From positions 1-55,200 of IMG/VR virus record IMGVR_UViG_3300031355_000002: 55,200 nucleotides of DNA; one strand, 5' to 3'. The first letter of the stretch is position 1. Each line of letters starts with the position of its first letter. Shown one piece after another: positions 22,384 to 55,099 of this stretch. A model generated the notes under the pieces. It made no database searches. It was not told the DNA's origin and worked only from the letters and a program-made list of their open reading frames with translations. The translations under genes and the position numbers were made by a program. Origin of the DNA: a virus. Taxonomy: Duplodnaviria > Caudoviricetes.

Positions 22384-22872
22384 ATGCAAACGTTCCTACC
22401 ATTCCCAGACTTTCAGAAGAGCGCTCGTATACTCGATAACAGGCGACTCGGCAAACAGCGGGTTGAGACACTTCAGATTCTGAGAGCTCTGACATATCCA
22501 AACGCTGCATGGCGCAATCATCCCGCTGTGAAGATGTGGAGAAACCATCGCCATGCGCTCGCACTCTACGGCGTCACTATATGCCGTGAGTGGCGATCCC
22601 GGGGATTCTGTGATCGTACAGAGGCCAAGATTGCACGATTCCTCCCGTGTCCCCTGAACCAAAAGCAGCACAGACATCACTGTCAGATTAGCGAGTCACA
22701 GACACAAGTGAGAGTCGAATACTACGACTACTACTGGGAGTTCCCACTACCGAGCTGGTTCGGCTCTGAGAAGTTCCACCGAGCGCATCGGTCGAACCTG
22801 AAGCGTAAGGATTCAGTTTATTACAAGAAGTTCCGGATCTCCAGCCGCCTGCCGTACGTGTGGCCAGTATAG
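22384..22872 (+). CDS. Pyrimidine-dimer DNA glycosylase family (DenV/MSMEG_6728-like)
   Basis: MQTFLP..DF..SA..LD.RRLGKQRVE.LQIL, NHPAVKMW, HRSNL.RKD, LPYVWP. Confidence 0.9.
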   Translation: MQTFLPFPDFQKSARILDNRRLGKQRVETLQILRALTYPNAAWRNHPAVKMWRNHRHALALYGVTICREWRSRGFCDRTEAKIARFLPCPLNQKQHRHHCQISESQTQVRVEYYDYYWEFPLPSWFGSEKFHRAHRSNLKRKDSVYYKKFRISSRLPYVWPV

Positions 22873-29263: not shown

Positions 29264-29774
29264 GATCAAGCGGCTTATGAAGATCAAGCAAGCTGTTGGC
29301 GCTCCGTTTGAACATAACAGGGCCGACAGCACCAGATCGAAGGACGACCAGAAATGCCGCAAGTGCGGGAAGACTGGTCATTCACTTGACGAGTTTCTTT
29401 CACCGTACGACGGTCTCTGTGCAGAATGTTCTCCAAACTCTGCCACCAACGTAAGGAAGCGCATCGAAAAGGCTTCTACTTCCCCCTCCGAGGAGGTAGA
29501 CGATGCCACTGAATGACGACCTCGCCGAACTGAGGCTGTATGTCGAAATGCGATTGAGCAAGGCAGAGAGTTACGTCAGCGAAAGCGAACGTGGGCAAAA
29601 CCGCAGGAACGGATGGGAGAAGTGGCACCGTCACAATCTCCCAAAGCGCGAGATGGCGCGGGATAAGTGGCTGCGGATACGAAACGGTATCGACGCCTTG
29701 CTTCGGAGCCAGAGTGCCGAGAAGTCATTCTGCCCGAAATGCACGTCGAAAAGTGCATCTGATAAGGCTTCTAC
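29202..29774 (+). repeat. Gene-end junction repeat (gcatc..aggcttctac[ttcccc]) in three consecutive genes
   Basis: aggcttctacttcccc exact at 29214 and 29470; gtgcatctgaNNaggcttctac at 29202 and 29753. Confidence 0.85.
29247..29516 (+). CDS. Zn-finger small protein
   Basis: Start adjusted to MLRISE after AAGGAGG; CRKC...CAEC. Confidence 0.65.
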   Translation: MLRISEIKRLMKIKQAVGAPFEHNRADSTRSKDDQKCRKCGKTGHSLDEFLSPYDGLCAECSPNSATNVRKRIEKASTSPSEEVDDATE

Positions 29775-29793
29775 CGGTAACAGGGGTGAGTGA
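29503..29793 (+). CDS. Hypothetical protein
   Basis: AGGAGG RBS. Confidence 0.6.
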   Translation: MPLNDDLAELRLYVEMRLSKAESYVSESERGQNRRNGWEKWHRHNLPKREMARDKWLRIRNGIDALLRSQSAEKSFCPKCTSKSASDKASTGNRGE

Positions 29794-30230
29794 TGGATCA
29801 AGAGCTACTGAAAAGGCTTGGCAAAGAGCATTGTGCACTATGCGGCCGAGGCCCCAAGCCGCCCGGCTACTGGCTAGAGCTTCAGCAAGATCCTCTGGTT
29901 CCGGGTCAGTGGATATGTGGTGCATGTGGCAGCAAGACGGAATTGCGTAAGGCCCAGAAGTGCATCGCGGAGTTGGAAGCGAAGTTGGCCGAAGCGGACT
30001 CTGCTAATGGAGCGTTGATGGCAATGCGCGACCGAGCAGAGAACAAGGTCAAGGAGTTGCAGAAGCGCGTCTTGGAGTTGGAGTCCGAGCGTAAACTAGA
30101 GGCCGATGGTAGCGAAGATTTGAATCGCGCCGAGACCGCATTTGCTCTCGTAGCCGGCCTCCGAGCCAAGGTCAAGGAGTTGGAGGCAGCGCTAGACGAG
30201 AAACAGAAGCAGAGGAGGATGAGTGATTAA
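29790..30230 (+). CDS. Zn ribbon + coiled coil (KVKELE family)
   Basis: CALC...CGAC; IAELEA; two KVKEL units. Confidence 0.65.
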   Translation: MMDQELLKRLGKEHCALCGRGPKPPGYWLELQQDPLVPGQWICGACGSKTELRKAQKCIAELEAKLAEADSANGALMAMRDRAENKVKELQKRVLELESERKLEADGSEDLNRAETAFALVAGLRAKVKELEAALDEKQKQRRMSD

Positions 30231-37048: not shown

Positions 37049-37645
37049 ATGACCAAGGCTGAGTTCAAGAAGATACACAGCAAAGCAAGCAACATGTCTG
37101 AGCTCGCTCGGCTGCTCAAATGTACGCGCCAGACAGCGTATCGCTGGTGCGAACGGTTCGGGTGCAAGCTAAAGGTAGGTGTGCCCGGAAGTGAGCCAAG
37201 ATATACAGATGCTCAGATGAGGAACGCATGGAAACGAGCAGGCGGGAACATCGCTGAAGCTTCAAGAATCCTGGGGTGCACTTACGTCACTGCGCTTACT
37301 CGTATCAAGAAACTTGGGCTCAAGCCTAAAGGTAAAGCTGGAGTGACTATTCAGTCGAAAGTCTACGGTGACTTCAAGTTCCTGGTCACCGTGCAGGACA
37401 TTGCTAGTAAGTACAGTATCGACTCGCGCACAGCCAAGCAGATGTTGATGAGTGAGTACAAGAAGCATCCACTCCCGGGCGGGAATGTGAAAAACGTCCG
37501 TGACATCAAGTTGGCGAAAGCTATCGATGACGACCCATCGATCCTCGAAGAGGCTCAGACAAGATCGGTGAAGAGACTACGTGACTTGACCGGCATACAG
37601 AAGCCGTGGATTGTTCGATATCTGAAGAGAAGGGGAACTGAGTAA
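37049..37645 (+). CDS. Multi-HTH (Fis-like) DNA-binding protein
   Basis: NMSELARLLKCTRQTAYRW; GGNIAEASRILGCTYVT; VQDIASKYSID. Confidence 0.75.
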   Translation: MTKAEFKKIHSKASNMSELARLLKCTRQTAYRWCERFGCKLKVGVPGSEPRYTDAQMRNAWKRAGGNIAEASRILGCTYVTALTRIKKLGLKPKGKAGVTIQSKVYGDFKFLVTVQDIASKYSIDSRTAKQMLMSEYKKHPLPGGNVKNVRDIKLAKAIDDDPSILEEAQTRSVKRLRDLTGIQKPWIVRYLKRRGTE

Positions 37646-38514
37646 TGGCGAAGATTTGGGCACCACAGCAACTGAAGCCGAAGAAGTGGAAGGGTCAACC
37701 ATTCCGCTACGCTCATGAGAAACTTGATGGGTGGAGAGTCACCGGATACAAGCAGAGTAGCGACAGTGTCTTAGTCTTCGGCAAGGATCACCGACCACAT
37801 CTCGAATACATCGAGAGATTCCCGAGGCTCAAGAAGACAGAGTGGTACAGAGCGCTCAAGCGTGAACCGGTCCGCACAGCTTTCGACGCAGAGATAGTGG
37901 TTCCCGGCAAGCCAGCATCATTCGTGTCCACCGCACTGCGTGATCCAAGCATTCCCATCAAGATCGTCACCTTCGCGGTCCCATGGCTGAGGGGTAAAGA
38001 CTTCAACGCACCTCTGGTAAAGGTCCAGGAATATGTCGAAGAAGCAGGGCTGGACTTCGCTCGATGGTGGTACGTCGACCACAAGGCATTCAAAGATGGC
38101 GACAAAGACAAGATGCTCAAGTTCGCTGAGAAACTGGGGATCGAAGGCTTCGTCCTCAAGCAACACCACTACGAGGGCTGGTTTAAGGTCAAGGCAGAGC
38201 AGACAGTCGACTGTATTGTCACCGACTGGGAGGACGGTGAGGGCAAGTACGAAGGTCAGATTGGAGCTCTCGTCGTCTCAGTCCTTGACGAGAACACAGG
38301 ACACTGGATTGAGATTGCGAACTGCTCGGGGATGACCGACGCCGAGCGGAAGCAGATGTCGAAGCTTCGCAAGGGGAACAAGATTCTCGACCGGGTCTGT
38401 GAAGTCAAGTATCAGAACGTCTCATCAAAGGGCCGGCTGAGGCACCCGAGGTTCGTGAGGTGGCGCAGTGATAAGCTCGCCGAGGAATGCACGATTGATC
38501 AACTGGAAGAGTGA
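37645..38514 (+). CDS. lig: ATP-dependent DNA ligase
   Basis: EKLDGWR (KxDG), FDAEI, EGFVLK, WFKVK, RHPRFVRWRSDK. Confidence 0.95.
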   Translation: MAKIWAPQQLKPKKWKGQPFRYAHEKLDGWRVTGYKQSSDSVLVFGKDHRPHLEYIERFPRLKKTEWYRALKREPVRTAFDAEIVVPGKPASFVSTALRDPSIPIKIVTFAVPWLRGKDFNAPLVKVQEYVEEAGLDFARWWYVDHKAFKDGDKDKMLKFAEKLGIEGFVLKQHHYEGWFKVKAEQTVDCIVTDWEDGEGKYEGQIGALVVSVLDENTGHWIEIANCSGMTDAERKQMSKLRKGNKILDRVCEVKYQNVSSKGRLRHPRFVRWRSDKLAEECTIDQLEE

Positions 38515-43386: not shown

Positions 43387-44637
43387 GTGGCAAAGAAGAA
43401 GTCGAAGAAGAAGTCAAAGAAGGGCAAGAAGGGCAAGAAGGGACGCAAGAGCAATAAGGGAAGTACAAAGCGCAAGAAGAAGCAGGAGACTGAGGACGAC
43501 GATGACGACGGTGAAGTCGAAGAGCACGGCAAGAGCGGAGCCGTCACCTTCGATGACATCGACGACTGGGACGATACCGAAGAGGCTCCGTCGTTCAGCG
43601 AAGTACCTGACGACAAGTACGAAGCAAAGATCGCCAGCGCAACGCTGAACCGCTCGAAGTCCTCGGGTCGTCGCCAGTGTTCGTGGGACCTCATCATCAT
43701 CAGCGGTGAGATGAAGGGTCGCCACGTCTTCAAGCACGATGGTCTCGAGGACGAGCAGCAGCGGTCCTACTTCAGGCAGGCTCTGGCCAAGCTCGGTATC
43801 GCATGGCCGAAGAAGAGCGAGCTGGCCGAGACTCTCTCTGAGCTTGAAGGAACCTTCGCTGCAATCACCGTCCGCACCAAGGGTGAGTTCCAGAACGTTT
43901 ACTTCGACCGCGCTCTCGACTCCGATGATGTCGGAGACATCGACGACCTGGACGATGATGGAGACGGAGACGGTGATGATGCTGCCGAGCTCGAGAAGGG
44001 TGACCGCGTCACCGCCGAGATCGATGGCGAGACGTATGCTGGCAAGATCATGAAGATCAAAGGCAGCAAGGCCACGGTCAAGTTCGATGACGGCGACAAG
44101 CAGACGCTGCCTCTCGACGAACTGTCCGCCGAAGACACCGACGATGACGGGGACGGGGATGACGACGGGGACGATGATGGAGACGGAGACGGGGATGACG
44201 ATGCTCCCGAACTCGAGAAGGGTAGCCGCGTAACTGCAGAGATCGACGGCGAAACCTACGCCGGCGAGATCAAGAAGGTCAAGGGCAAGAAGGCCACCGT
44301 GGAGTTCGATGACGGTGATACCCAGAAGATTGCCCTGGACGACCTCACCGCCGAAGACGATGACGGTGATGGAGACGACGATGATGGCGACGGAGACGAC
44401 GACGGGGACGACGGGGACGGTGAGGGCGTAGAGGTCGAGTTCGATGATGACGACCTCACATCGAAGGACAAGAAGAAGATCAAGAAGCTGGCGAAGAAGT
44501 ACAAGATGGACCCTGAGGACTATGACACCACAAGCGACCTGCTCGTAGAAATCGCGGAATATTGCGATATCTCGGGCACGTACAAGAAGGCGTCAAAGCT
44601 CATCAAGGAGTGCGAAGAGCACGAAGACGACGAGTAG
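43387..44637 (+). CDS. SSB (DUF669-like OB fold) with Lys-rich tail, two Tudor/SH3-like repeats and Asp-Gly tracts
   Basis: F..VPD.KYEA.I.....RSKSSGR......I..GE.KGR.VF; follows Sak4-like gene; duplicated ELEKG.RVTAEIDGETYAG.I....KATV.FDDGD. Confidence 0.8.
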   Translation: MAKKKSKKKSKKGKKGKKGRKSNKGSTKRKKKQETEDDDDDGEVEEHGKSGAVTFDDIDDWDDTEEAPSFSEVPDDKYEAKIASATLNRSKSSGRRQCSWDLIIISGEMKGRHVFKHDGLEDEQQRSYFRQALAKLGIAWPKKSELAETLSELEGTFAAITVRTKGEFQNVYFDRALDSDDVGDIDDLDDDGDGDGDDAAELEKGDRVTAEIDGETYAGKIMKIKGSKATVKFDDGDKQTLPLDELSAEDTDDDGDGDDDGDDDGDGDGDDDAPELEKGSRVTAEIDGETYAGEIKKVKGKKATVEFDDGDTQKIALDDLTAEDDDGDGDDDDGDGDDDGDDGDGEGVEVEFDDDDLTSKDKKKIKKLAKKYKMDPEDYDTTSDLLVEIAEYCDISGTYKKASKLIKECEEHEDDE

Positions 44638-44648
44638 AGCCTAAACAA

Positions 44649-44687
44649 TGGGGACTCTCGGTTCAACCCCGAGAGTCCCCAGTCTTT
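44649..44687 (+). terminator. Terminator-like hairpin after SSB
   Basis: Perfect 13-bp stem tggggactctcgg/ccgagagtcccca followed by gtcttt. Confidence 0.7.
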
Positions 44688-44696
44688 GGAGCGTCG

Positions 44697-47528
44697 ATGA
44701 AAACACTCATCCAATTCATCAGGGAAACGATCGACCCAAAGGAGTACTACAAGAGCATCTTCCCAGAGATAAGTTGGGGAGGTGCAACTGAAGCTAGGGT
44801 CATCTCGCCGTGGACTGCGGAGAAAGATCCGAGCCTATCAGTAAACGGACAGACTGGAGCTTGGTACTCTTTCTCTGCCGATGATGAGTTTGGTGGAAAG
44901 TCGATAGTCTCATTCCATGCGAAATATCACGAATGCTCACAGAGTGATGCAGCAAAGCAGTTGTTCCAGCAATTCATCCATCCGACAGTTGACGAGCGGG
45001 CTATCCGTCGATGGGAACGAAGCCTCAATGGAACGCCCAGCGCGAAGAAATACCTCCGTGGCAGCAGACTAATCAGCCACAAGATACTAAAGCGATACCA
45101 GATTGGTTGGAACGGTAACCGATTCACTGTCCCAGTCAGAAATGAGTGGGGTATATGCGTGAATGTCAAGCTGTACGATCCACTAGCAAAGAAGCGCGGC
45201 CTACCCAAGATGCTCAACTATCACAAGGACGATGAGCCCAGGAAGTTTGGAACACCGCCGATGATCTTCCCGCTTCCTGTGTTGATAGGCTGCGAGGGTT
45301 TCATAGTCGTCTGTGAGGGTGAATGGGACGCGCTCGCATTGCTGTCCATCGGTATTCCGGCTGTAACGAGTACAGCGGGAAGCAAGTCGTGGCCAGATCA
45401 GTACACCCATCTATTCAAAGGGTTGGACGTTGTCATTGCATACGACAACGATAGTGCAGGGGAGAAGCACAGTAAGAAGTACGTGTTGAAGCACCTACTC
45501 AATGTTGCAAAATCAGTGAAGCAAATTAAGATTCCAAAGGTGTATGGCAAAGACGTTACCGACTGGATCCTCAACAAGAAGCTGATGCGCAAAGCTAAAT
45601 TCTGGGAGCGAGAATTCAAGAGGGCCAAACTGCTGGTGGAGAATCCTGAAGAATCACCAGACAACCCTGACGTAATAGATGTTCCATTGAACTACGCTAG
45701 CGAGGCTCAGTACTTTATGAAACGAGTGAGAGTCAATGCACTAGTGAGTGGCAAGGATACTGCACCCTATATGTTGCCCGCTAAGTTCAGAGTGACCTGC
45801 CAGCAGAACTGTGATGAGTGCAGATTAGCGGAAGAGGAATTCGTTGAGCGTACAATTGATCCAAAGACTCCACTAGTGTTGAACCTAACAGACGCGAATC
45901 AGGCATCCACTAGGAAACTAATGCTCGGGCTAGCGGGCATACAACCGAGGCCACACTGTAGTGCGAAGATAGACGTAGTCCAGACATTCAACGTTGAGCA
46001 GGTCTTGCTGATTCCGACGCTCGACAACACCAATGGTCAGTACGTGATGAGATCCGCATATTACGTAGGCCACGGTCTAGCAGCTAACCGATCATACCGA
46101 CTTGAAGGGATGACGCTTCCACATCCGAAAGATCAGCACACGACACACCTCTTTGACACTGCGCACCCACTGCAAGGTGAGATCGAGACGTTTGAGATGA
46201 GCAAAGACATCAAGAAGCAGCTCAACAGATTCAAACCTGGTAAGTTGAAGCCATTAGCGAAGCTCATGTCACTGGCAGAATGGCAATCAAGAAACATCAC
46301 GAAGATTCATGAGCGTCCTGACCTCCACGTTGCCGTGGATCTAGCGTTTCATTCGGTGAGAGCATTCAATTTCAACGGCGAGTTCATCAATCGTGGAATG
46401 CTCGACATACTCGTCCTCGGTGATACTCGGTGTGGGAAGGGCTACGTCACAGAACGACTCACACGATACTATGGCCTTGGTGACGTTGCCTCGGGAGAGA
46501 ACTGCACATTCGCCGGACTTGTTGGAGGTTTACAGCAAGTCGGGAGCAGATGGTTGGTGACTTGGGGTGTCATCCCGCTCAACAACAATCGCTTAGTGGT
46601 GATAGATGAAACGTCGTCACTCAGTGAAGAAGAGATCGGCCATATGAGTCGAGTAAGAAGCGAAGGTGTCGCAGAGATCAGCAAGATCATTAAGGAATCG
46701 ACACAGGCTAATACTCGACTCATATGGTTGAGTAATCCGCGGAGTGGTAGGCCGATCATGAGCTACAACGCAGGAGTAGAAGCCATCAAGGAACTAGTGG
46801 GAGCCAACGAAGATATCAGCCGTTTTGACTTCGCACTGACTGTAGCGACTGATGAGGTTCCAAGTGAGATCATAAACGCGCCGGCAGATAACAGCATCAA
46901 AGATGCCGACCTGTATCCAAAGGATATTTGCAGGTCACTTGTGCTCTGGGCGTGGTCGAGAGACCCTGACCAGATCGAGTTTAGCAGTGGCGCTACAAAG
47001 ATGATCATTAAGGAAGCTATAAATTTCGGCCACTCATACTCTCCAACAATACCTCTAATCCAGTCGGAGAACATTCGTATCAAGCTGGCCAAGATCTCTG
47101 CAGCCATCGCTGCAAGGCTGTTCAGCTGCGACAAAACTGGCGAGAAGCTCATCATCCGATCAACCCACGTCCGGTGCGCGTGTGAGTTTCTGAAGATGAT
47201 ATACTCCAAGGCGAGCATGAGCTATCACACATTCAGCCGATCCGCCCAGGCCATCTCCAAGATTAAGGATCCGTCAAGCATATTCGCCAATCTTGGCGCA
47301 CAGAGACGTGCAGCCATGGGTGGACTGCTTGAGATTCATCAAATCACTCCCGACAGTCTAGCTGACTTTACGGGAGATACAGTGTTGGCGAAATCGCTCA
47401 TTGGTGAGCTCGTTCGTCTGCGCTGTATATCAAGGATCGAGAAGAGCAACTGGTACTTGAAGAACGCAGCATTTAGCTCGTGGCTCCGGGACCAGATGCG
47501 AAAGGGCAGGAGGAGTAAGCATGGCTGA
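44697..47528 (+). CDS. Primase-helicase: DnaG-like TOPRIM fused to MCM-type AAA+ helicase
   Basis: VCEGEWD, AYDND.AG; DILVLGDTRCGKG, TFAGL.GG, VVIDE, SNP, SRFD; start adjusted to MKTLIQ. Confidence 0.85.
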   Translation: MKTLIQFIRETIDPKEYYKSIFPEISWGGATEARVISPWTAEKDPSLSVNGQTGAWYSFSADDEFGGKSIVSFHAKYHECSQSDAAKQLFQQFIHPTVDERAIRRWERSLNGTPSAKKYLRGSRLISHKILKRYQIGWNGNRFTVPVRNEWGICVNVKLYDPLAKKRGLPKMLNYHKDDEPRKFGTPPMIFPLPVLIGCEGFIVVCEGEWDALALLSIGIPAVTSTAGSKSWPDQYTHLFKGLDVVIAYDNDSAGEKHSKKYVLKHLLNVAKSVKQIKIPKVYGKDVTDWILNKKLMRKAKFWEREFKRAKLLVENPEESPDNPDVIDVPLNYASEAQYFMKRVRVNALVSGKDTAPYMLPAKFRVTCQQNCDECRLAEEEFVERTIDPKTPLVLNLTDANQASTRKLMLGLAGIQPRPHCSAKIDVVQTFNVEQVLLIPTLDNTNGQYVMRSAYYVGHGLAANRSYRLEGMTLPHPKDQHTTHLFDTAHPLQGEIETFEMSKDIKKQLNRFKPGKLKPLAKLMSLAEWQSRNITKIHERPDLHVAVDLAFHSVRAFNFNGEFINRGMLDILVLGDTRCGKGYVTERLTRYYGLGDVASGENCTFAGLVGGLQQVGSRWLVTWGVIPLNNNRLVVIDETSSLSEEEIGHMSRVRSEGVAEISKIIKESTQANTRLIWLSNPRSGRPIMSYNAGVEAIKELVGANEDISRFDFALTVATDEVPSEIINAPADNSIKDADLYPKDICRSLVLWAWSRDPDQIEFSSGATKMIIKEAINFGHSYSPTIPLIQSENIRIKLAKISAAIAARLFSCDKTGEKLIIRSTHVRCACEFLKMIYSKASMSYHTFSRSAQAISKIKDPSSIFANLGAQRRAAMGGLLEIHQITPDSLADFTGDTVLAKSLIGELVRLRCISRIEKSNWYLKNAAFSSWLRDQMRKGRRSKHG

Positions 47529-47979
47529 GAAACTCATTCACTTCCCGGAAGATGTTCATCGGGTACTAACACTGATGGAGGCACACAAAGCCCCAAAGAC
47601 TATCCAGGGATTTGACTTGATCTGTCGGGAGGCAGATCAGCTTAGACTGGGATTGCTAAACAATGTCAACCGCTCAAGCGAAGACTGGAAAACACGGTTT
47701 CTGCTGATTGGCCATGCCGCACTTAGCATCGTCATTGAGTGGAACGCCTTCGCCTTTGCTGAGCTGCTGCTTAAGAAGCATACGCTGTACGGAATCAAGC
47801 CGCTCCTGTTATGGCGAGAGCTGGGTGTCTGTGTTCGATTAACCAACAAGATCGAGCGCATGAAGAATATGATGGCAGACCCGAGTGCAGACACTCAGGG
47901 TGAATCTTGGAACGACACACTCTCAGACATAGTGGGGTACTGTGTGCTGGGGTGGTGGTTGAAAGAGAAAGGGTACTAG
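47521..47979 (+). CDS. Nucleotide-modification-associated domain 1 (DUF1599-like, all-alpha NTP-PPase fold)
   Basis: KKH..YG...GV.VRL.NK.ER..N...ES..DTL.DIVGY. Confidence 0.75.
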   Translation: MAEKLIHFPEDVHRVLTLMEAHKAPKTIQGFDLICREADQLRLGLLNNVNRSSEDWKTRFLLIGHAALSIVIEWNAFAFAELLLKKHTLYGIKPLLLWRELGVCVRLTNKIERMKNMMADPSADTQGESWNDTLSDIVGYCVLGWWLKEKGY

Positions 47980-47980
47980 G

Positions 47981-48649
47981 ATGAACATTGACGACGTAGC
48001 AATGGACTCTATTGTAATGCCGGAGGGTAGTGTGATAGCGGCTATCTTCGAGCATCAGCACGACCTGACGATGAAGTACAAGGACATCGAAAAGAAGAAC
48101 GGCGCGAACTTTCCAGTGCCTCCCTGGAACATCGATGACAAGTTTGTCCAGTGGAGACTGAAGGATCTGTTCTGGCGCGTCACCGAAGAACTCGCAGAAG
48201 CACTCGACGGTGGCGGCTTCCGTGGTATGGCCAACTGGGAGAAGCGTTGGAATGATGATGCTGATGTCCGACACTTCTTCGAGGAACTAGCTGATGCGCT
48301 CCACTTCCTGGTTGAAGCATCACTAGTGGGTGGGCTCGAACCCGTAGACATTCAGGAGTACTGGGAGGCTGACATCGATGCTGGTGGGTCGACATCAAGC
48401 TCGGATATTCAGAAGAGCTGTGCCGATATCGTCTGGGCCATCGGCCTCGCAGCCAATTGCCTCAAGAACAAACCATGGAAACTGACTCAGATGCCAACCG
48501 ACAAACCGGCATTCAATCGACACATGATGGATGCATGGTGTGAATTTATCGACCTCTGGGAGGGGTTGGGCTGCTCCCAAGAATTCGTTTACAAACTCTA
48601 CTTCCGCAAGAACGCAGTGAATCAGTTCCGACAGAGGAGCAACTACTAA
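47981..48649 (+). CDS. All-alpha dNTP pyrophosphatase (dimeric dUTPase/dCTPase-like)
   Basis: EELAEA, EELADALHF, KNKPWK, YFRKN.VN.FRQ..NY. Confidence 0.85.
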   Translation: MNIDDVAMDSIVMPEGSVIAAIFEHQHDLTMKYKDIEKKNGANFPVPPWNIDDKFVQWRLKDLFWRVTEELAEALDGGGFRGMANWEKRWNDDADVRHFFEELADALHFLVEASLVGGLEPVDIQEYWEADIDAGGSTSSSDIQKSCADIVWAIGLAANCLKNKPWKLTQMPTDKPAFNRHMMDAWCEFIDLWEGLGCSQEFVYKLYFRKNAVNQFRQRSNY

Positions 48650-49497
48650 TGTCCTTAGAGATCCATGGCAAAGACATAACCCGAGTAGTGAATGCAGCAC
48701 TGCGCCACCACTTGGAGACTCCTCAACCAGACGCAGTGTTGAGCATAGAGACTCATATGTTCAATGTTACACTTGCTGCTGACTCCTGTGAGTATTCGTT
48801 GGACCTCGGTAAGCATGTTTGGTTGAACAAGTCAAGATGGACCAGGTTAATTAGGGAATATGTCTCTGCGGAAGATATCTGGCGGTTCCTTCGGCAGGCC
48901 ACGGAGATCTATAAGGGCACGGCGAGAAAAGGCGCAACTGCAAATATGCTCTTCAAAGACCCAGTGAGGTACGAGAAGAAGCATCGTTGGGGTGGATGCC
49001 TCATGGGCGCCACCTTCCGTGGAGAAGAAGGTAATCACCCCACCATTACCTTCTTCTCCCGGACAACATACATGGGCTACATGGGATTGCTGGATGCAGG
49101 CATAGCTCATATCATGGCGCAATACATAGCCAAAGACTTGGATGATTTGTCGGGGATCGGGTTCCGATGGCACATCACGAGTCAGCAACTTCATTGTTTC
49201 AAGACTATACCGTACATCTTCAGTCAGAAAGACCTAATAAAAGATCTGGAGAAGTACGCCAAGAAGACAGATGCCTGGTGTAAGAAACACCTCACTCCAA
49301 CGTGGAGATATATGACAAAGTGGTACAAGAAGATTCAAGAGGCATACGAAGAGCACGGCGTCAAGATGCTCAACAAAGAGAAATATGGTCCATTCCGCAG
49401 GATCAAGCGAAGGTGGCTCGAGTACAAGAGATACCTAAAGAAGAACATCCCGCCATCTTTGCTCATCTCCAACCTCGACTTTAACAAGGCGCTTTGA
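48649..49497 (+). CDS. Divergent thymidylate-synthase-fold protein
   Basis: GGC-x20-R spacing, FFSRTTYMGYMGLLD, WHITSQQLH align to the TS catalytic core; context. Confidence 0.55.
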   Translation: MSLEIHGKDITRVVNAALRHHLETPQPDAVLSIETHMFNVTLAADSCEYSLDLGKHVWLNKSRWTRLIREYVSAEDIWRFLRQATEIYKGTARKGATANMLFKDPVRYEKKHRWGGCLMGATFRGEEGNHPTITFFSRTTYMGYMGLLDAGIAHIMAQYIAKDLDDLSGIGFRWHITSQQLHCFKTIPYIFSQKDLIKDLEKYAKKTDAWCKKHLTPTWRYMTKWYKKIQEAYEEHGVKMLNKEKYGPFRRIKRRWLEYKRYLKKNIPPSLLISNLDFNKAL

Positions 49498-49498
49498 C

Positions 49499-50035
49499 AT
49501 GAGCAAGAAAAGCAGACTCCGGAAGAAGCGGAACGAGAAGTGCAGGAAGTGCAATCTGTACAAGTCTACAGTGAATCGCTGCGTGATGGGTCGTGGGGAC
49601 ACTAACTCACCCATCATGCTGATCGGAGAGGCCCCAGGTCAAGCTGAGTCAGAGACCGGCAAACCTTTCATGGGTCGAGCGGGTAGACTTCTTAATGAGA
49701 TTCTGGTTTATATCGGAATCGACCCGTACATTACGAACTTCTGCAAGTGTCGACCTCCCGAGAATCGGACACCCGAGTTCAAAGAGCTTCGGAGATGCTT
49801 CACATACTTAGAGTCAGAGATCAAGATCATCAAGCCACGAGTCATTCTGATCATGGGCAAGACGGTAGCTAAGAAAGCGAAGTTTTCCAAGCAGCGGCTG
49901 ACAGGCAAGCCCTTCTCGTGGTATGATTCAATTGCCAGGATTACGGTACATCCTGCATATGTATTGAGGAACCGAACCAAGAAACCAATCTTAGTGGAAG
50001 CCCTAGAGTGGGCCAAGAGGGAGGCGACGAAATGA
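49499..50035 (+). CDS. udg: Uracil-DNA glycosylase, family 4
   Basis: C..C.L, IGEAPG..E...G.PF.GRAG, KCRPP.NRTP, HPAY.LR. Confidence 0.95.
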   Translation: MSKKSRLRKKRNEKCRKCNLYKSTVNRCVMGRGDTNSPIMLIGEAPGQAESETGKPFMGRAGRLLNEILVYIGIDPYITNFCKCRPPENRTPEFKELRRCFTYLESEIKIIKPRVILIMGKTVAKKAKFSKQRLTGKPFSWYDSIARITVHPAYVLRNRTKKPILVEALEWAKREATK

Positions 50036-50802
50036 GGATCTACACGAATGCACTCGAGGCGGTCAAAGAAGTCGAGCGTGACCTGTGGGAGATGGGGATC
50101 AGCGTTCATCCTCAGACGATGCAAGACAAAGACGTAGCCGACGATGAAGACTACGAGACGAAAGAAGTCAGGGGTTATGGCTTCCAGATTGTTGACGCTG
50201 CCTGGGACAAAGTTGTAGAGAACGCAGTCATCGAGCATATCCTTCCCAGAGAACAGTGGGAAGCAGTTAACGAATACATCTCTTTGGAGTACAAAGACCG
50301 CATCGGTACCGTCCAGCTGAACCCAGGTGGGTCATGGAAGGCACGCTCACAGATATGGAACGAGTTCATGCACGATGGGAAGTTTGCATATACCTATTCT
50401 GAGCGCATGGCTCCACAACTCTCTCGCATCATCAAAGAGCTGAAAGAACGGCCAGGTACGCGACAGGCCATCATAAACATCCATTCTAACATTCGTGGAT
50501 GCTGCGAGCCGGAATCGAGCGTGACGATCTGCGCGGATGCAGACCTCAATAATATGGGAGGACATGCACGAATTCCGTGCTCGATGTATTACCAGCTTAT
50601 GATTCGTGAGAATAAGCTAGACCTCATCTACACAATGCGTTCGTGTGATTTCCTGGTCCACTTCCCGGTAGACATCATGCTGGCTATGAGGCTGCAGACC
50701 TATGTGGCGAAGTGGCTCAGTCTTGGGGTGGGGTTATTCACCTATTTCACCGGTTCGCTTCACGCATACGTCAAGGACATGAGGGTGCGTGGCATCTTCT
50801 AA
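50032..50802 (+). CDS. Thymidylate-synthase-family enzyme, predicted dCMP-specific (hydroxymethylase/methylase-like)
   Basis: YTYSER, TRQA, IPC, MRSCD, GSLHAY; Asp at the Asn177-equivalent position. Confidence 0.85.
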   Translation: MRIYTNALEAVKEVERDLWEMGISVHPQTMQDKDVADDEDYETKEVRGYGFQIVDAAWDKVVENAVIEHILPREQWEAVNEYISLEYKDRIGTVQLNPGGSWKARSQIWNEFMHDGKFAYTYSERMAPQLSRIIKELKERPGTRQAIINIHSNIRGCCEPESSVTICADADLNNMGGHARIPCSMYYQLMIRENKLDLIYTMRSCDFLVHFPVDIMLAMRLQTYVAKWLSLGVGLFTYFTGSLHAYVKDMRVRGIF

Positions 50803-50919
50803 CAGATGTGCATGGAAGGGCGATGGCAAAACGGCAGTCCGTAGAGAGTACGGTGACTGATATCGCTGCTACCGAAGGCGACAGCGACCATTGCCCGACT
50901 ATGCTGAAAGGAACAGACG

Positions 50920-51189
50920 ATGACGGAGACAATCACGCCGAAGTCCATCGGAAACCTGGTACGAGAGTACAGGTATAGGATGAGAATTAGCACAACAGAG
51001 CTGGCCAAGCGTGTTGGAATTTCACAGGCTCAGGTATCGCGCCTAGAGAATGGTCAGCAAGGGTTCAGGTCTGGAACACTCATTCGACTTGCAATTGTCC
51101 TCGGAGTGAAGCCATGGGTATTCTTTATGACATCTACTGAACGTCTCGCCGCAGAGAAGGCCAAGGGACTCAAGATAGAGAGCAAATGA
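50920..51189 (+). CDS. XRE-family HTH regulator
   Basis: ISTTELAKRVGISQAQVSRLENG. Confidence 0.9.
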   Translation: MTETITPKSIGNLVREYRYRMRISTTELAKRVGISQAQVSRLENGQQGFRSGTLIRLAIVLGVKPWVFFMTSTERLAAEKAKGLKIESK

Positions 51190-51539
51190 TGAGCAAGAAA
51201 AAATCACCACCAAGGTGCCCATGGGTCGGAGCCAAATTCCACGGGTTCAAACATCCGGAAGAGCTGCATGTCTTTCGGAGACTGATGTCTGCGAACTCAG
51301 CTCTTCCTCAGAAACAGCTAGAGCAGTCAGCTCCTGATAAAGACCTTAATGGTAGAATCTCGCATCCAGAACCAACAACTACTACTTCAGCGAGGTTGCT
51401 ATCGCTAATAGACTGGGGCGTAATAAAAAGAAGAAGAGAAGGGAAGTACTTCGTCTATTGGGTCCCATTTACTACAAAGGCGTACATGAACCATAAGTAT
51501 CGCAACAGGAAGGTCCCATGGAATGAGCCGACCTACTAG
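51186..51539 (+). CDS. Winged-helix (ArsR-like) DNA-binding protein
   Basis: TTSARLLSLIDWGVIKRRREGKYFVY. Confidence 0.65.
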   Translation: MMSKKKSPPRCPWVGAKFHGFKHPEELHVFRRLMSANSALPQKQLEQSAPDKDLNGRISHPEPTTTTSARLLSLIDWGVIKRRREGKYFVYWVPFTTKAYMNHKYRNRKVPWNEPTY

Positions 51540-51945
51540 AGAGCAGATTCACATCACCACAGCCAAGATGTGGGCATTAAGATCTGTATGTAAGCGACTG
51601 AAGGTCGGTGCAGTCATTACTGACCTCTCTATGCGCCGCGTCCTTGCTGTGGGGTACAATGGTCCAGCTAGCGGGCTAGACCATGAGCGGTGCAATACCG
51701 AGGAAGGTAACTGTGGCTGCCTCCACGCAGAGTGCAATGCAATTGCGCGAGTTGACAATACGCTTCCTGGCAAGATAATATTCGTGACCATCTCTCCGTG
51801 TGTGATGTGTGCTCAGATGATCATCCAAGCCGGGATTACCAAGGTCTACTACGTGGATGAGTACAGGGATAGGGAAGGGCTATGGCTACTAGAGCGATGT
51901 CACGTCGAAGTCGAAAGAATACCAGAACGTCTGGTCCTAACCTAA
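51523..51945 (+). CDS. dCMP deaminase family protein
   Basis: S.C.R.KVGAVI, GYNG, HAECNAI, SPC.MC. Confidence 0.92.
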   Translation: MSRPTREQIHITTAKMWALRSVCKRLKVGAVITDLSMRRVLAVGYNGPASGLDHERCNTEEGNCGCLHAECNAIARVDNTLPGKIIFVTISPCVMCAQMIIQAGITKVYYVDEYRDREGLWLLERCHVEVERIPERLVLT

Positions 51946-53912
51946 GTGGCAAATACGTTGCTCTTGACGTTGAGACGACGGGGCTTGACCCATACCATGG
52001 AGCCAGGATATTCTGCTGGGCCTACTACACCGAGAAGGGTGAGTGGGGGTTCATGTTCAAGACCCCGCGGAACCTGGCATGGATTGAGCGTCTACTCAAC
52101 GATCCCGACAAGACAGTCATCTTCCACAACGCCAAGTTTGACCTCAAGATGTTCAGCTTCGAAGGCATCAACATATACTCGCTGAAGTGTCGCGTTGAGT
52201 GTACCCTTATCATGTCCAAGCTATGGGATGAGAATGGCCAGCACAACCTCCGCTATCTGTCGATACGCTATCTTGACAGAGACACCACAGACAAAGACGA
52301 AGTCGAAGGCTGGTGCAAGAGGAACAAGCGCAGGTTCGTCAAAGAGAAGGGCCGAGAGCCCAACTTCAAAGACGCGCCGAAGAAGATGGTGAAGCGCAGG
52401 TGTGTGTGGGATGTGGAGTCAACACTCAAGCTCTACGCCTTCCTGAAGCCTCGAATCAACAAGACCTGTGCATCACTGTATGAAACCGAAAGGCAGCTCA
52501 TTTTCGTCACCATCGACATGGAAAACACCGGTGTGATGGTTGACATTACGAGAGCCAAGAAGCTCAGGCGAAAAGCTCTCGTAGACCTCAGGAAGATCCA
52601 CGATGACCTCAACCGTATGATCTGCCCGCTGACGGTTCAAAAGAAAAAGAAGGGTGAGTACGTCGAAGTAACCATAGACGACTTCAACCCAAACAGCAGT
52701 TCCATACAGCTTCCCGCTGCGTTCAACAAAGTTGGCATTGAGCTCAAGTACAAAACGAAACCCAAGAAGGGTAGGAAGGGTGGATCGAAGACGGGAGGCG
52801 GGAACTGGTCGTTCGATGAGTATGCCATGGTTCGATACGTATCCAAACCACTGGCGTCCATCATACGTGACTCTGGAGAAGAGGGCTGGGAAACTGATCG
52901 ATGGTACAAAGCTCTTAAGACAGCCATCAAGAAACACTCGCTTAAGAAGCGAGAGCTTCTCCCTCCACTCATCCTCAAGTATCGTGAACTGTCCAAGATG
53001 GTCAGCACGTACTACGACCACATCATAGATGACGCAGTAAAAGTGCACAAGACACCGAGTGGCCGCGAGATCGGGGTGCTGCACTGCAACTTCAATCAGA
53101 GCGAGGCGATGACGGGTCGCTTCAGTTGCAGCAAGCCAAACCTCCAGAACATCCCACGTATCCTCGGTCCGCGTGAGTGCTTCATCCCGAGAGTCGGTCG
53201 TAAGAACTGGCACCTCGACTATGCTCAAGTTGAGATGCGTATGTTCTGCCACTTCTCGAAGGACAAGAAGATGGCAGCTGCAATCGATAAGGATATCCAT
53301 CTCGCTGTCGCTTGCGAGATATACGACAAGGCCGAGAAGAAGATATCTAAGGAACAGCGGAAGCGAGCTAAGGGTGTTAACTTCGGCATCATCTATGGGT
53401 CTGGTGCAGCAACGATGTCTGAGACGCTCACCAAGAAGGGCCTTCCGACTTCGAAGATGGAAGCAGCAACGCTGGTTGCGAGCTACCACCGCAAGTTCCC
53501 GTCTGTAAGACAGATAACAAATGAGTTTAAGGTGCAGCTGCATAGAGATGGATATGTACCCAATCCATTCGGTCGTCGATATCACGTCCCGACCAAGGTC
53601 GGATACAAGCTACTCAACTACATGTGCCAGGGGACATCAGCAGATATCATGAAGAAAGCAATGGTAGAGGCTTGGCTCTGGCTTAGGGAAAACGGGTTCA
53701 AGACTAAAATCATAATGACAGTACACGATGAGATAGTGTATGAGGTCCCCCCAGCTGAGGCGAAGAAAGTGATTCCCAAGCTACTTGAGATCATGGAAGA
53801 TCTAAAGGGATTCTTCGTACCAATCACGGTCGAAGCTGAGGTTGCACCGAAGCGTTGGAGTGCGAAGAAAAAACCTGAAGAAGTAGGCTGCAAGTGGGTG
53901 AAGAATGCCTAA
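51882..53912 (+). CDS. polA: Family A DNA polymerase (3'-5' exonuclease + polymerase domains)
   Basis: DVETTG, HNAKFD, TGRFS...PNLQNIP, DYAQVEMR, RKRAKGVNFGIIYG, QGTSAD, VHDE. Confidence 0.97.
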   Translation: MATRAMSRRSRKNTRTSGPNLSGKYVALDVETTGLDPYHGARIFCWAYYTEKGEWGFMFKTPRNLAWIERLLNDPDKTVIFHNAKFDLKMFSFEGINIYSLKCRVECTLIMSKLWDENGQHNLRYLSIRYLDRDTTDKDEVEGWCKRNKRRFVKEKGREPNFKDAPKKMVKRRCVWDVESTLKLYAFLKPRINKTCASLYETERQLIFVTIDMENTGVMVDITRAKKLRRKALVDLRKIHDDLNRMICPLTVQKKKKGEYVEVTIDDFNPNSSSIQLPAAFNKVGIELKYKTKPKKGRKGGSKTGGGNWSFDEYAMVRYVSKPLASIIRDSGEEGWETDRWYKALKTAIKKHSLKKRELLPPLILKYRELSKMVSTYYDHIIDDAVKVHKTPSGREIGVLHCNFNQSEAMTGRFSCSKPNLQNIPRILGPRECFIPRVGRKNWHLDYAQVEMRMFCHFSKDKKMAAAIDKDIHLAVACEIYDKAEKKISKEQRKRAKGVNFGIIYGSGAATMSETLTKKGLPTSKMEAATLVASYHRKFPSVRQITNEFKVQLHRDGYVPNPFGRRYHVPTKVGYKLLNYMCQGTSADIMKKAMVEAWLWLRENGFKTKIIMTVHDEIVYEVPPAEAKKVIPKLLEIMEDLKGFFVPITVEAEVAPKRWSAKKKPEEVGCKWVKNA

Positions 53913-53919
53913 TATGGTA

Positions 53920-53993
53920 ACTCGCGATGGCGGGGAACCTCGGTTCTGGGGTTGCCTTGCTCCGCCGGGGTTTCCTGGCCATCATCTGTGAGT
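53920..53993 (+). promoter_or_regulatory. Long imperfect RNA hairpin between polA and the next gene
   Basis: actcgc/gtgagt, gatgg/ccatc, cggggaacctcgg/ccggggtttcctg, with G:U pairs. Confidence 0.55.
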
Positions 53994-54029
53994 CTTGACG
54001 TTTGGGGATCCATTTCAAGGAGGTGTTCC

Positions 54030-54287
54030 GTGGCGAAGAAGAAGAGCAAGAAGAAAGGCAAGAAGGACAAGAAGGACAAGAAGGTCAGCAAGGGCGAGGA
54101 GTCAGTCAGCTCGTTGCTGAAGCTTCTTGAGGAGACAGACGACCAGGACGAGAAGCGCAACATCCGCGCAAAGCTGAGGGCCCGTGGTCACGAGGGTGGT
54201 CTGGGCGGCAAGAAGGCGAAGAAGAAAGCGAAGAAGAAAGCGAAGAAGAAGGGCAAGAAGAAGAAGTCTGACGAAGACGACGAGTAG
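54030..54287 (+). CDS. Small Lys-rich (histone-H1-like composition) protein
   Basis: GTG after AAGGAGG; Lys-rich ends around a DEKRNIRAKLRARGHEGGLG core; acidic tip. Confidence 0.75.
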   Translation: MAKKKSKKKGKKDKKDKKVSKGEESVSSLLKLLEETDDQDEKRNIRAKLRARGHEGGLGGKKAKKKAKKKAKKKGKKKKSDEDDE

Positions 54288-54602: not shown

Positions 54603-54628
54603 ATACGACGTTGAAAAGGAGCAAGGCA

Positions 54629-55099
54629 ATGACGAAGAAGCAGACGACGAAGAAGAGCAGCAAGGGCGCGAGCAAGGGCAAGTCGACGAAGTCGACGAAG
54701 AAGACGACGAAGAAGCCAGCCGCAAAGAAGGACGCGAAGATCGCCGCCACCAAGTCGGTCTCGTTCAAGAAGGGTGACCGCGTGAGTGTGTTCACCGACG
54801 GTGGCGCCTGGAAGGGCACGGTCGAGAAGATGCACAAGTCCGGGACGGCGATGGTCGCTGACGACTCAAACACGGTCCAGCGCGTGAAGACGTCGCAACT
54901 GAGTGAGTTGCACCGCGGACGCCAGGCGTTGCTGACCTCGCTGAGCACGAAGGAGCTGCACTCCGAGATCGCGCAGATTGTTAAGGAGCTGAAGGCGACG
55001 ACCGACCGGGACGAAAAGAAGCGGCTTCGCCGCTCGCTTCGCCGCCGCGGTCACAAGGGCGGTCTGGGTATCTGCGCCGAAGTCGTTGAAGCGCGCTAG
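54629..55099 (+). CDS. Lys-rich tail + Tudor/SH3-like domain + RGH.GGLG domain protein
   Basis: AAGGAG RBS; FKKGDRVSV..DG..WKGTVE; DEKKRLRRSLRRRGHKGGLG. Confidence 0.75.
   Translation: MTKKQTTKKSSKGASKGKSTKSTKKTTKKPAAKKDAKIAATKSVSFKKGDRVSVFTDGGAWKGTVEKMHKSGTAMVADDSNTVQRVKTSQLSELHRGRQALLTSLSTKELHSEIAQIVKELKATTDRDEKKRLRRSLRRRGHKGGLGICAEVVEAR

Follow-up and report, generated by a model that had tools for sequence, protein, structure and literature searches.

A Predicted Thymidylate Synthase-Fold Protein Linked to a Deoxycytidylate-Type Thymidylate Synthase Homolog in a Putative Cytosine-Modification Module of Phages

We analysed a predicted cytosine-modification module in the IMG/VR virus record IMGVR_UViG_3300031355_000002 (Duplodnaviria; Caudoviricetes). 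The window is this entire record, which has 55,200 bases, a CheckV completeness of 84%, and no terminal repeats. Two proteins of the module, here called A and B, are candidate relatives of thymidylate synthase (TS). B has the residues predicted for a folate-type enzyme specific for deoxycytidine monophosphate (dCMP), and A, which belongs to no annotated family, is predicted from its structural model to have the TS fold. In the reading that we prefer, and to which we give an even chance, the module would carry out a pre-replicative replacement of cytosine of the T4/Xp12 kind, with A as an accessory enzyme that depends on B but not on folate; the reading draws on sequence, structural models, and analogy.

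Which restriction and CRISPR defences succeed against a phage depends on its base modifications, and such modifications are also a source of enzymes used in epigenetic sequencing. Unexpected chemistry has recently come from the TS fold, namely the flavin-dependent 5-hydroxylation of dCMP. The A family had previously gone unnoticed: its 236 representative clusters are annotated as “hypothetical” and have no Pfam model. A accompanies TS homologs of a separate cytosine-specific clade in phages that are cultured and easy to grow, which makes its function directly testable by published assays. Should A turn out to be an enzyme, the known pathways would gain a new step and possibly another base.

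Protein B Is a Predicted dCMP-Specific Enzyme of the TS Superfamily

The six-frame translation of the window contained a single match to PF00303, which was protein B (45.6 bits, above the cut-off), and searches of the same translation for ThyX and thymidylate kinase returned nothing. The initial annotation had noted that no Asn-type TS is present, and these searches agreed with it and extended the observation to ThyX. The coordinates of B are given in Table 1; an alternative start is the GTG at 50008. In alignments, Cys183 (nucleotide 50578), Arg203 (50638), and Asp214 (50671) of B corresponded to Cys146, Arg166, and Asn177 of E. coli ThyA, with the same Cys-to-Arg spacing of 20 residues, exactly as had been annotated. 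In E. coli numbering, B carries Arg126-Gln127, Arg143, Cys146, Ser147, Arg166, Ser167, Asp169, His173, and Asp177, and its short C terminus stops about 10 residues past Tyr209. Cys146, Arg166, Ser167, and Arg126 were invariant in alignments of B with TS, the PaMx74 TS, and T4 gp42, and were conserved in a 43-sequence alignment of the B family. ThyA and B share the fold, Cys146, Arg166, Ser167, Asp169, His207, and Tyr209; in contrast, ThyA has Asn177 and a longer C terminus, whereas B has Asp177 and is truncated. With Asp214 in place of the uracil-recognising Asn177, B is not a strict thymidylate synthase. It scored at most 45.5 bits against the NCBIfam TS models, whose cut-offs are 108–405 bits, and its best match among PDB sequences was the dCMP hydroxylase AfhB of phage HY126 (9iqu, 1.7e-6). 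The AlphaFold2 (AF2) model of B had a predicted local distance difference test score (pLDDT) of 94.0; its nearest structure was the CMP hydroxymethylase MilA (TMq 0.73), followed by AfhB and then by ordinary TS.

The B clade has a signature of Arg126-Gln127, Arg143, Ser or Thr147, Asp169, His173 (sometimes Tyr or Phe), Asp177, and a short C terminus. According to the available parts of the published work, Asp177 determines specificity for dCMP and is enriched in cytosine-modified contigs (PMC8670742; PMC13326640), an acidic residue at position 143 goes with hydroxymethylation and lets water reach the methylene intermediate (PMC13326640), and a change of Asp169 to Asn marks the flavin-dependent 5-hydroxy-dCMP synthases (PMC13326640). 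The TS homolog of RL38JI (Pootjesviridae) was shown to make 5-hydroxydeoxycytidine (5hodC) (PMC13326640), and the expected Asn169 was present when the homolog of Agrobacterium phage Atu_ph04 (Pootjesviridae) was aligned with B. Position 143 is Arg in B and in all B-type relatives, and position 169 is Asp in B (Asp206) and Tyr in A (Tyr141). Arg143 is covered by neither published rule, and the rule for position 143 is not absolute, as the PaMx74 TS carries Asn143. Because Asp177 and Asp169 are both kept, B is classified from its sequence as a dCMP-specific, folate-type member of the TS superfamily and not as a thymidylate synthase, in line with the initial annotation. Its product would be 5-methyl-dCMP or 5-hydroxymethyl-dCMP, either being possible from the sequence, and its short C terminus appears closer to those of non-reductive enzymes than to those of methylases. 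B was also considered as a flavin-dependent 5-hydroxy-dCMP synthase and rejected, given that Asp169 is kept.

At the position of E. coli Gly173 (His210 of B, nucleotides 50659–50661), every A-bearing locus had His or Tyr. Phe at this position was confined to loci without A (9 of 21) and largely to one clade. Residue 173 lies within 6 Å of C5 in the E. coli structure (PMC13326640), and in the B family it may track the chemistry of the product.

Protein A Is Predicted to Be a TS-Fold Enzyme

Protein A had no match in Pfam, in NCBIfam, or among PDB sequences (the last searched up to an E value of 10). The ThyA family PF00303 was thus not matched by A, nor was it matched at E ≤ 0.1 by any of 36 diverse A-like proteins, and a profile comparison of the A family with PaMx74 gp55 gave no similarity. 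The AF2 model of A, built with an alignment of 48 metagenomic homologs, was nevertheless confident and compact (pLDDT 94.3; predicted template modelling score (pTM) 0.91). Foldseek returned 24 PDB matches at E ≤ 0.001, and all of those listed were TS, the dihydrofolate reductase-TS fusion DHFR-TS, T4 dCMP hydroxymethylase, MilA, or AfhB, the top one being the AfhB dCMP hydroxylase (9iqu, E 2.7e-5). Each match had a probability of 0.98–1.00 and a template modelling (TM) score of only 0.3–0.48. In BFVD, uncharacterised phage proteins came first (TM ≤ 0.72), followed by dCMP hydroxymethylases and TS, and the ESM Atlas agreed with this picture. The initial annotation had suggested Foldseek as a check on the fold of A, and since every listed PDB match belongs to the TS superfamily, the modelled structure of A is that of a TS-fold protein.

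The residues of A that correspond to the TS active site are Cys117 (nucleotide 48997), Arg138 (49060), and Asp149 (49093), with Tyr141 at the position of the RSxD Asp (Asp169). The initial annotation had described the same skeleton as in B; its coordinates and the Tyr were correct, but Cys and Arg lie 21 residues apart in A rather than 20; the distance from Arg to Asp, 11 residues, equals that in TS. In the close A family, Cys117, Arg138, Thr139, Asp149, and His182 were invariant together with a string of Arg and Lys residues. In a broad alignment of 36 relatives, the distant ones being 11–20% identical, Tyr71, Cys117, and Asp149 remained invariant, and position 138 was Arg or, in a few distant members, Lys. 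The residue equivalent to Asp169 was Tyr in the clade of the window and Glu in a distant clade. Conserved Arg and Lys residues were numerous and included a C-terminal KYGxxRR motif. Where TS has the folate segment with Trp80, Trp83, and Tyr94, the model of A showed only short helices between strands 34–44 and 97–101. By equivalence at the motif level, A is predicted to retain the Cys nucleophile, the Arg that binds phosphate, and the Asp that reads cytosine, and to lack the folate-binding segment and Asp169. The invariance of the nucleophile at such divergence argues that A is an enzyme rather than a decayed paralog. A kinase function was considered for A and ruled out, as the protein has no P-loop.

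The A family was collected at E ≤ 0.001. The best 150 of its 236 representatives were 88–371 amino acids (aa) long, a range of lengths indicating that none of these 150 is a fusion of A and B. A tblastn search of cultured phages with two divergent A-like proteins gave no matches, and a scan of 185,579 species genomes with the closer A-family pattern gave 16 pattern matches, none of them a relative, so that no cellular or prophage host can be named for A. In the literature listings on the cultured phages that carry the pair, and on DUF1599/Nmad1, nothing was found about the DNA composition of these phages or about protein A. A prediction of the A–B complex returned a score of 0.00 (“no answer”) and was used neither for nor against an interaction.

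The Gene for A Is Linked to That for B across Phages

When IMG/VR loci were collected with A as the seed, a B-type TS was found within 2 kb downstream in 32 of 33; the remaining locus ends at A, and all 32 assessable loci therefore had the neighbour. With B as the seed, an A-like gene was present in 43 of 64 loci, upstream of B in 26 and downstream in 17, at a distance of at most 300 nucleotides (nt) in 25, and the stop and start codons of the two genes often overlapped. Adjacency that is kept while the gene order switches is good evidence of functional coupling between A and B. The other 21 B-seeded loci had no A-like gene within 5 kb, and the active-site signature of B was the same in them. 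Ten A-less contigs were searched over their whole length, and one contained A, at the opposite contig end; it would be adjacent to B if that genome is circularly permuted. The dependence was one-sided, in that A was never seen without B and B was found without A. Together with the unchanged B signature, this one-sidedness disfavours an obligate heterodimer and fits an accessory enzyme that needs the product of B or its nucleotide pool.

The pair was also present in cultured phages, Gordonia phage GTE2 among them. In Gordonia phage BillDoor, Streptomyces phage Zuko, and Microbacterium phage Triscuit, the order was kinase, dUTPase/MazG-like protein, an A-like “hypothetical protein”, TS with the Asp, deaminase, and PolA. 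After iteration of the A-family hidden Markov model (HMM) to reach distant members, A-like genes were also found with B in Clostridium phage CPAS-15, Brevundimonas phage Polewnik, Pseudomonas phage STP12, and a gut phage, the last with two tandem copies beside the TS. As controls, the iterated HMM matched no B open reading frame (ORF), nor E. coli thyA, nor 50 kb of PaMx74, nor the Atu_ph04 locus. The A-like gene of CPAS-15 (CPAS15_0021, L005:5208-5957) encodes 250 aa, lies directly upstream of the TS homolog, and keeps the Cys, Arg, and Asp; it is misannotated as “colanic acid biosynthesis glycosyltransferase” and is a distant A-family member. Two tandem A-like paralogs preceded a B-type TS in phage DP SC_6_H4_2017 (L107:2919-4767) and in locus L049 (2807-4445).

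Some relatives held an independent thymidylate synthase beside the cytosine-type one. Triscuit encodes, next to the pair, a canonical ThyA that is 64% identical to that of E. coli and has Asn177, and locus L033 has ThyX and a kinase-like gene upstream of the pair. In these phages the A+B pair would be redundant if it served as a mere route to thymidylate (dTMP). ThyX was seen a few genes from a B-type TS in two uncultured phages (L033:5617-6522 and L057:3544-4191).

DNA Methyltransferases Usually Stand beside B Where A Is Absent

In the loci without A, the gene adjoining B usually encoded a DNA methyltransferase of the C5 type (PF00145), of the N6/N4 type, or a fusion of both. Among 95 non-redundant B-type loci, 72 had A and no methyltransferase, 17 had a methyltransferase and no A, 4 had neither, and 2 had both (Fisher p 3.6e-13, uncorrected for relatedness). 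For the C5-methyltransferase alone, the corresponding counts over 94 rows were 73, 15, 5, and 1. On a tree of 94 B proteins, the presence of A changed at least 8 times and that of the C5-methyltransferase at least 6 times. Where independent contrasts could be drawn, the methyltransferase changed in the direction opposite to A in about 3.4 and in the same direction in none. These patterns hint that the A-bearing phages are protected by a nucleotide pathway and that phages that lost A rely on DNA methylation. In one A-less locus (L073:5660-7048), an asparagine-synthase-like amidotransferase (PF00733 and GATase_7) lay directly downstream of the B-type TS and could be a tailoring enzyme.

Relation to Known Systems and Proposed Pathway

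A cluster of TS with the Asp, deaminase, pyrophosphatase, and PolA is already known, and only protein A is new. In the available text of a preprint (bioRxiv 10.1101/2024.12.05.627091), dCMP-deaminase genes lay within 3 kb of a TS gene in 104 of 149 cases in cytosine-modified metaviromic contigs versus 17 of 277 in unmodified ones, and most of the TS genes near those deaminases carry dCMP-type residues. The same source reports that five of seven TS tested made 5-methyl-dCMP (5mdCMP), that one deaminase turned 5-methyl-dCTP (5mdCTP) into deoxythymidine triphosphate (dTTP), as earlier isotope work had suggested for Xp12, and, in a figure legend, that pyrophosphohydrolase and PolA domains occur in such neighbourhoods. 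The alternative raised in the initial annotation, in which a modified cytosine nucleotide is deaminated to supply thymine, is thus the published model for Xp12-type phages. For Gordonia phages carrying these genes, genome announcements speak of thymine synthesis (PMC10353413).

The Xp12/PaMx74-type module for 5-methylcytosine (5mC) has the same gene set with PolA, has Asp177, and has no separate TS for deoxyuridine monophosphate (dUMP); its simple form in PaMx74 comprises a pyrophosphohydrolase, TS with the Asp, and a deaminase, with DHFR nearby. In contrast to B (256 aa; Gln127, Arg143, Ser147, His173), the PaMx74 TS has 298 aa, Arg126-Arg127, Asn143, Pro147, Gly173, and a full C-terminal region, and no A-like gene was found in the 50 kb searched of the 58.6 kb genome. 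T4, with gp42, the gp56 dCTPase, the cd deaminase, and the gp1 kinase, follows the same logic of draining dCTP, modifying dCMP at C5, and deaminating dCMP. T4 gp42 shares Asp177 and Asp169 with B but has Asp143, Gly173, and Arg126-Arg127, where B has Arg143, His173, and Gln127. Unlike T4, the window lacks glucosyltransferases, a kinase, and a second, dUMP-type TS. We know of no T4 counterpart of protein A. The flavin-dependent 5-hydroxy-dCMP synthases AfhB (phage HY126), RB69 gp48, and DLP3 gp80 include the top PDB sequence match of B and the top structural match of A, both being AfhB, but they carry Asn169, where B has Asp and A has Tyr (Glu in distant members). Neither the module nor the scanned neighbours in 12 relatives yielded arabinose or glycosyl-transfer genes. 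As the AfhB-type enzymes show, a TS fold can support reactions on dCMP that do not require folate (PMC13326640).

By analogy with these systems, the pathway in the window could run as follows. The dUTPase_2-family pyrophosphatase would return dCTP, and dUTP with it, to the monophosphate. B would read cytosine through Asp177 and add a one-carbon group at C5 of dCMP, giving 5-hydroxymethyl-dCMP or 5-methyl-dCMP; the substrate class and the folate one-carbon donor follow published residue rules, and the product is the less direct part of this step. A host kinase, or a phage kinase encoded in the missing part of the genome, would then make the triphosphate, which PolA would incorporate. As in Xp12-type phages, the dCMP-deaminase-family enzyme may convert part of the cytosine nucleotides, modified or not, to thymine-type nucleotides; thymine nucleotides made in this way would explain a contig with neither an Asn-type TS nor ThyX. 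The uracil-DNA glycosylase (UDG) would keep uracil out of DNA. A would perform a second, folate-independent step, most likely on the product of B or on the same cytosine nucleotide pool, and this step would decide the final protective base. A more far-reaching version, which we offer tentatively and regard as rather doubtful, is that A represents a new branch of the TS fold acting on a cytosine nucleotide without folate, as AfhB does with flavin, that together with B it gives an undescribed cytosine derivative in DNA, and that the pair, a widespread substitute for methyltransferases, shields from restriction both phages of Actinobacteria, Firmicutes, and Proteobacteria and many uncultured ones.

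Evaluation of the Proposed Pathway and of Alternative Explanations

Several observations weigh against the proposed pathway. Cytosine replacement in this phage is a prediction from its genes. A comparison of the A and B families with hhalign gave a probability of 0.3%, which stands beside the failure of all 36 A-like members to match PF00303. The structural matches of A to the PDB were modest in TM (0.3–0.48), and the active-site equivalences consequently rest on motif-level alignment and not on superposition. Residue 143 is ambiguous as to the product of B, being Arg in B, Asp in T4 gp42, and Asn in PaMx74, for which 5mC is reported. The 6–8 independent contrasts between A and the methyltransferase were not significant in a sign test (median p 0.25). 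Absence of A is itself an uncertain call because many contigs are fragments; of the ten A-less contigs searched whole, one was more than 90% complete (93%). The window also lacks a nucleotide kinase, as the initial annotation had remarked and as family scans, the thymidylate kinase search, and a survey of Walker-A motifs bore out. No kinase family was found among the other large ORFs by family scans, and the only place with a Walker-A motif besides the AAA_24 protein was an open frame of 130 codons (29558-29947) that overlaps a scanned, family-less ORF (29790-30230); since the contig is an estimated 84% complete, a kinase could sit in the missing part. Finally, some CG-rich palindromes were rarer than expected (ACGCGT, 0 versus 7.9; CGCGCG, 1 versus 11), and a fully protected genome would have no need to avoid them. 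The avoidance is mild, involves a few sites, and would have to be read against the host.

Mild avoidance of this kind would suit a module that is only an alternative supply of thymidylate, in which B makes 5-methyl-dCMP, the deaminase converts it or its triphosphate to a thymine nucleotide, virion DNA remains canonical, and A is an accessory, for example in nucleotide binding or channelling. The contig without an Asn-type TS or ThyX, the deaminase that follows B in most loci, the published deamination of 5mdCTP to dTTP (bioRxiv 10.1101/2024.12.05.627091), and the Gordonia phage announcements (PMC10353413) point the same way. However, the same enzymes accompany full replacement of C by 5mC in the cases described in the available text of the preprint, the ThyA of Triscuit and the ThyX of L033 make the pair redundant for this purpose, and the near-absence of DNA methyltransferases from A-bearing loci, set against their usual presence in A-less ones, suggests that the A-bearing phages have another form of protection. 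We therefore consider thymidylate supply alone to be unlikely. The initial annotation had also raised the possibility that A is a heterodimer partner of B, and here A would be a half that does not bind folate and completes the active site of B. Enzymes of the TS family are dimers that share Arg126′ and Arg127′ across the interface, B has Gln at position 127, and the two genes adjoin each other, the stop codon of one often overlapping the start codon of the next. Yet the identical 15-position B signature was found in the 21 of 64 loci with no A-like gene within 5 kb (one of these contigs being 93% complete), no fusion to B occurred among the best 150 of the 236 A-family representatives, and the invariance of Cys117 in very distant members argues for a catalytic site of its own. 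An obligate heterodimer is accordingly disfavoured, and we rate it as improbable.

A might instead work post-replicatively, its target being cytosine within DNA or some other polynucleotide; it would then do, with a TS fold, the job of the C5 DNA methyltransferases that take its place in A-less phages. Both classes of enzyme attack C6 of cytosine through a cysteine. The near mutual exclusion of A and PF00145 beside B (94 rows), with at least 5–6 switches of each on the B tree, would be explained, and the many conserved Arg and Lys residues, including KYGxxRR, would suit such a substrate. We know of no TS-fold enzyme that acts on polynucleotides, however, and no donor-binding element was recognisable in A; the independent-contrast test, moreover, was not significant. 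Methyltransferases of the N6/N4 type also fill the slot, so that generic protection replacing a lost nucleotide pathway fits better than a specific swap of chemistry, and a post-replicative role of A has little probability in our view. A might also take no part in base modification, either as a regulator that binds nucleotides without catalysis or as a TS paralog in decay. A cofactor site that cannot be named and the lack of a sequence match to characterised families would agree with this reading. This is very improbable in light of the invariant Cys117 and Asp149 and the nearly invariant Arg138 at 11–20% identity, the confident and compact model, and a family of 236 representative clusters (E ≤ 0.001) strictly linked to B. 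The proposed pathway, with A as a B-dependent accessory enzyme, is thus the reading that we retain.

Other Genes of the Module and of the Window

The module occupies the end of a long replication block on the plus strand, and every gene that the initial annotation had named was found on that strand where it had been placed. The gene order was DUF1599-like, pyrophosphatase, A, UDG, B, helix-turn-helix (HTH) protein, small ORF, deaminase, and PolA (Table 1).

Table 1: Features of the module at 47.5–53.9 kb and of the gene directly upstream.
Feature	Coordinates	Strand	Evidence
Primase (Toprim) fused to MCM-like P-loop helicase	44562..47528	+	Toprim_2 4.2e-09; MCM 2.8e-06; phrog_18685 and DNA primase PHROGs
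Small alpha-helical protein, weakly DUF1599 (Nmad1)-like	47521..47979	+	PF07659 E 0.0064, 17.3 bits (cut-off 25); phrog_1485 6.8e-10
All-alpha NTP pyrophosphohydrolase, dUTPase_2/MazG-like	47981..48649	+	PF08761 2.1e-11; phrog_12184 “nucleotide pyrophosphohydrolase” 2.3e-29
Protein A, predicted TS-fold paralog without annotated family	48649..49497	+	phrog_13667 “unknown function” 2.4e-34
Family-4 uracil-DNA glycosylase	49499..50035	+	PF03167 9.6e-30; TIGR00758 145.5 bits (cut-off 125.3)
Protein B, TS homolog of the dCMP-specific kind	50032..50802	+	PF00303 2.1e-12, 47.2 bits (cut-off 24.3); 256 aa
XRE-type helix-turn-helix protein	50920..51189	+	HTH_31 8.9e-11; HTH_3 1e-10
117-aa ORF	51186..51539	+	No family in Pfam, PHROG, or NCBIfam
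Small zinc deaminase, dCMP deaminase family	51523..51945	+	PF00383 (dCMP_cyt_deam_1) 2.7e-18; phrog_174 1.6e-44
Family-A DNA polymerase with 3′-5′ exonuclease domain	51882..53912	+	DNA_pol_A 4.3e-72; DNA_pol_A_exo1 5.3e-13; phrog_17 3.5e-122

The first gene of the module had been annotated as Nmad1-like; the gene is present, but the family call is weak, the match lying below the cut-off. DUF1599 was the best, yet sub-threshold, match in six of seven orthologs, the window included (E 0.0003–0.03), and a search of PDB sequences with the protein gave no match. The pyrophosphohydrolase that follows is a putative dCTPase/dUTPase that would supply dCMP and dUMP. A similar gene is found at the corresponding place in Zuko, Triscuit, BillDoor, and CPAS-15, and among PDB sequences the protein of the window had two chance-level matches only (E about 1). 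The UDG, which lies between A and B in the window, is found between the deaminase and PolA in relatives. The HTH protein is not kept in the module of relatives. The deaminase had as its best solved relative a 138-aa deoxycytidylate deaminase (4p9c, 1.1e-24), and among the 32 A-seeded loci containing B, 27 had a deaminase match after it; the putative substrate of the enzyme is dCMP or a modified dCMP or dCTP. The first 64 nt of the PolA ORF as listed (51882-51945) also form the end of the deaminase gene, and PolA probably starts at a later codon.

Upstream, the replication block encodes a ligase, an SNF2 helicase, a PD-(D/E)XK nuclease, an AAA_24 ATPase, a DUF669 protein, and the primase/MCM-like helicase. 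The last of these is directly upstream of the module and is syntenic in loci L006–L012; its start may lie downstream of 44562. Family scans of the minus strand identified the large terminase, the portal, proteins of the major head and scaffold kinds, and one tail-fibre-like protein. A 416-aa protein at 43387-44637 (plus strand) has a DUF669-like N-terminal part, long low-complexity runs rich in Asp, Gly, and Glu, and two repeated Tudor/SH3-like segments. Two small ORFs at 53952-54287 and 54611-55099 have Lys-rich N termini. The phage also carries several parts of base-excision repair, namely a pyrimidine-dimer DNA glycosylase of the T4 endonuclease V family at 22384-22872 on the plus strand (PF03013, 2.8e-25), the UDG, and an ATP-dependent ligase-like protein at 37645-38514.

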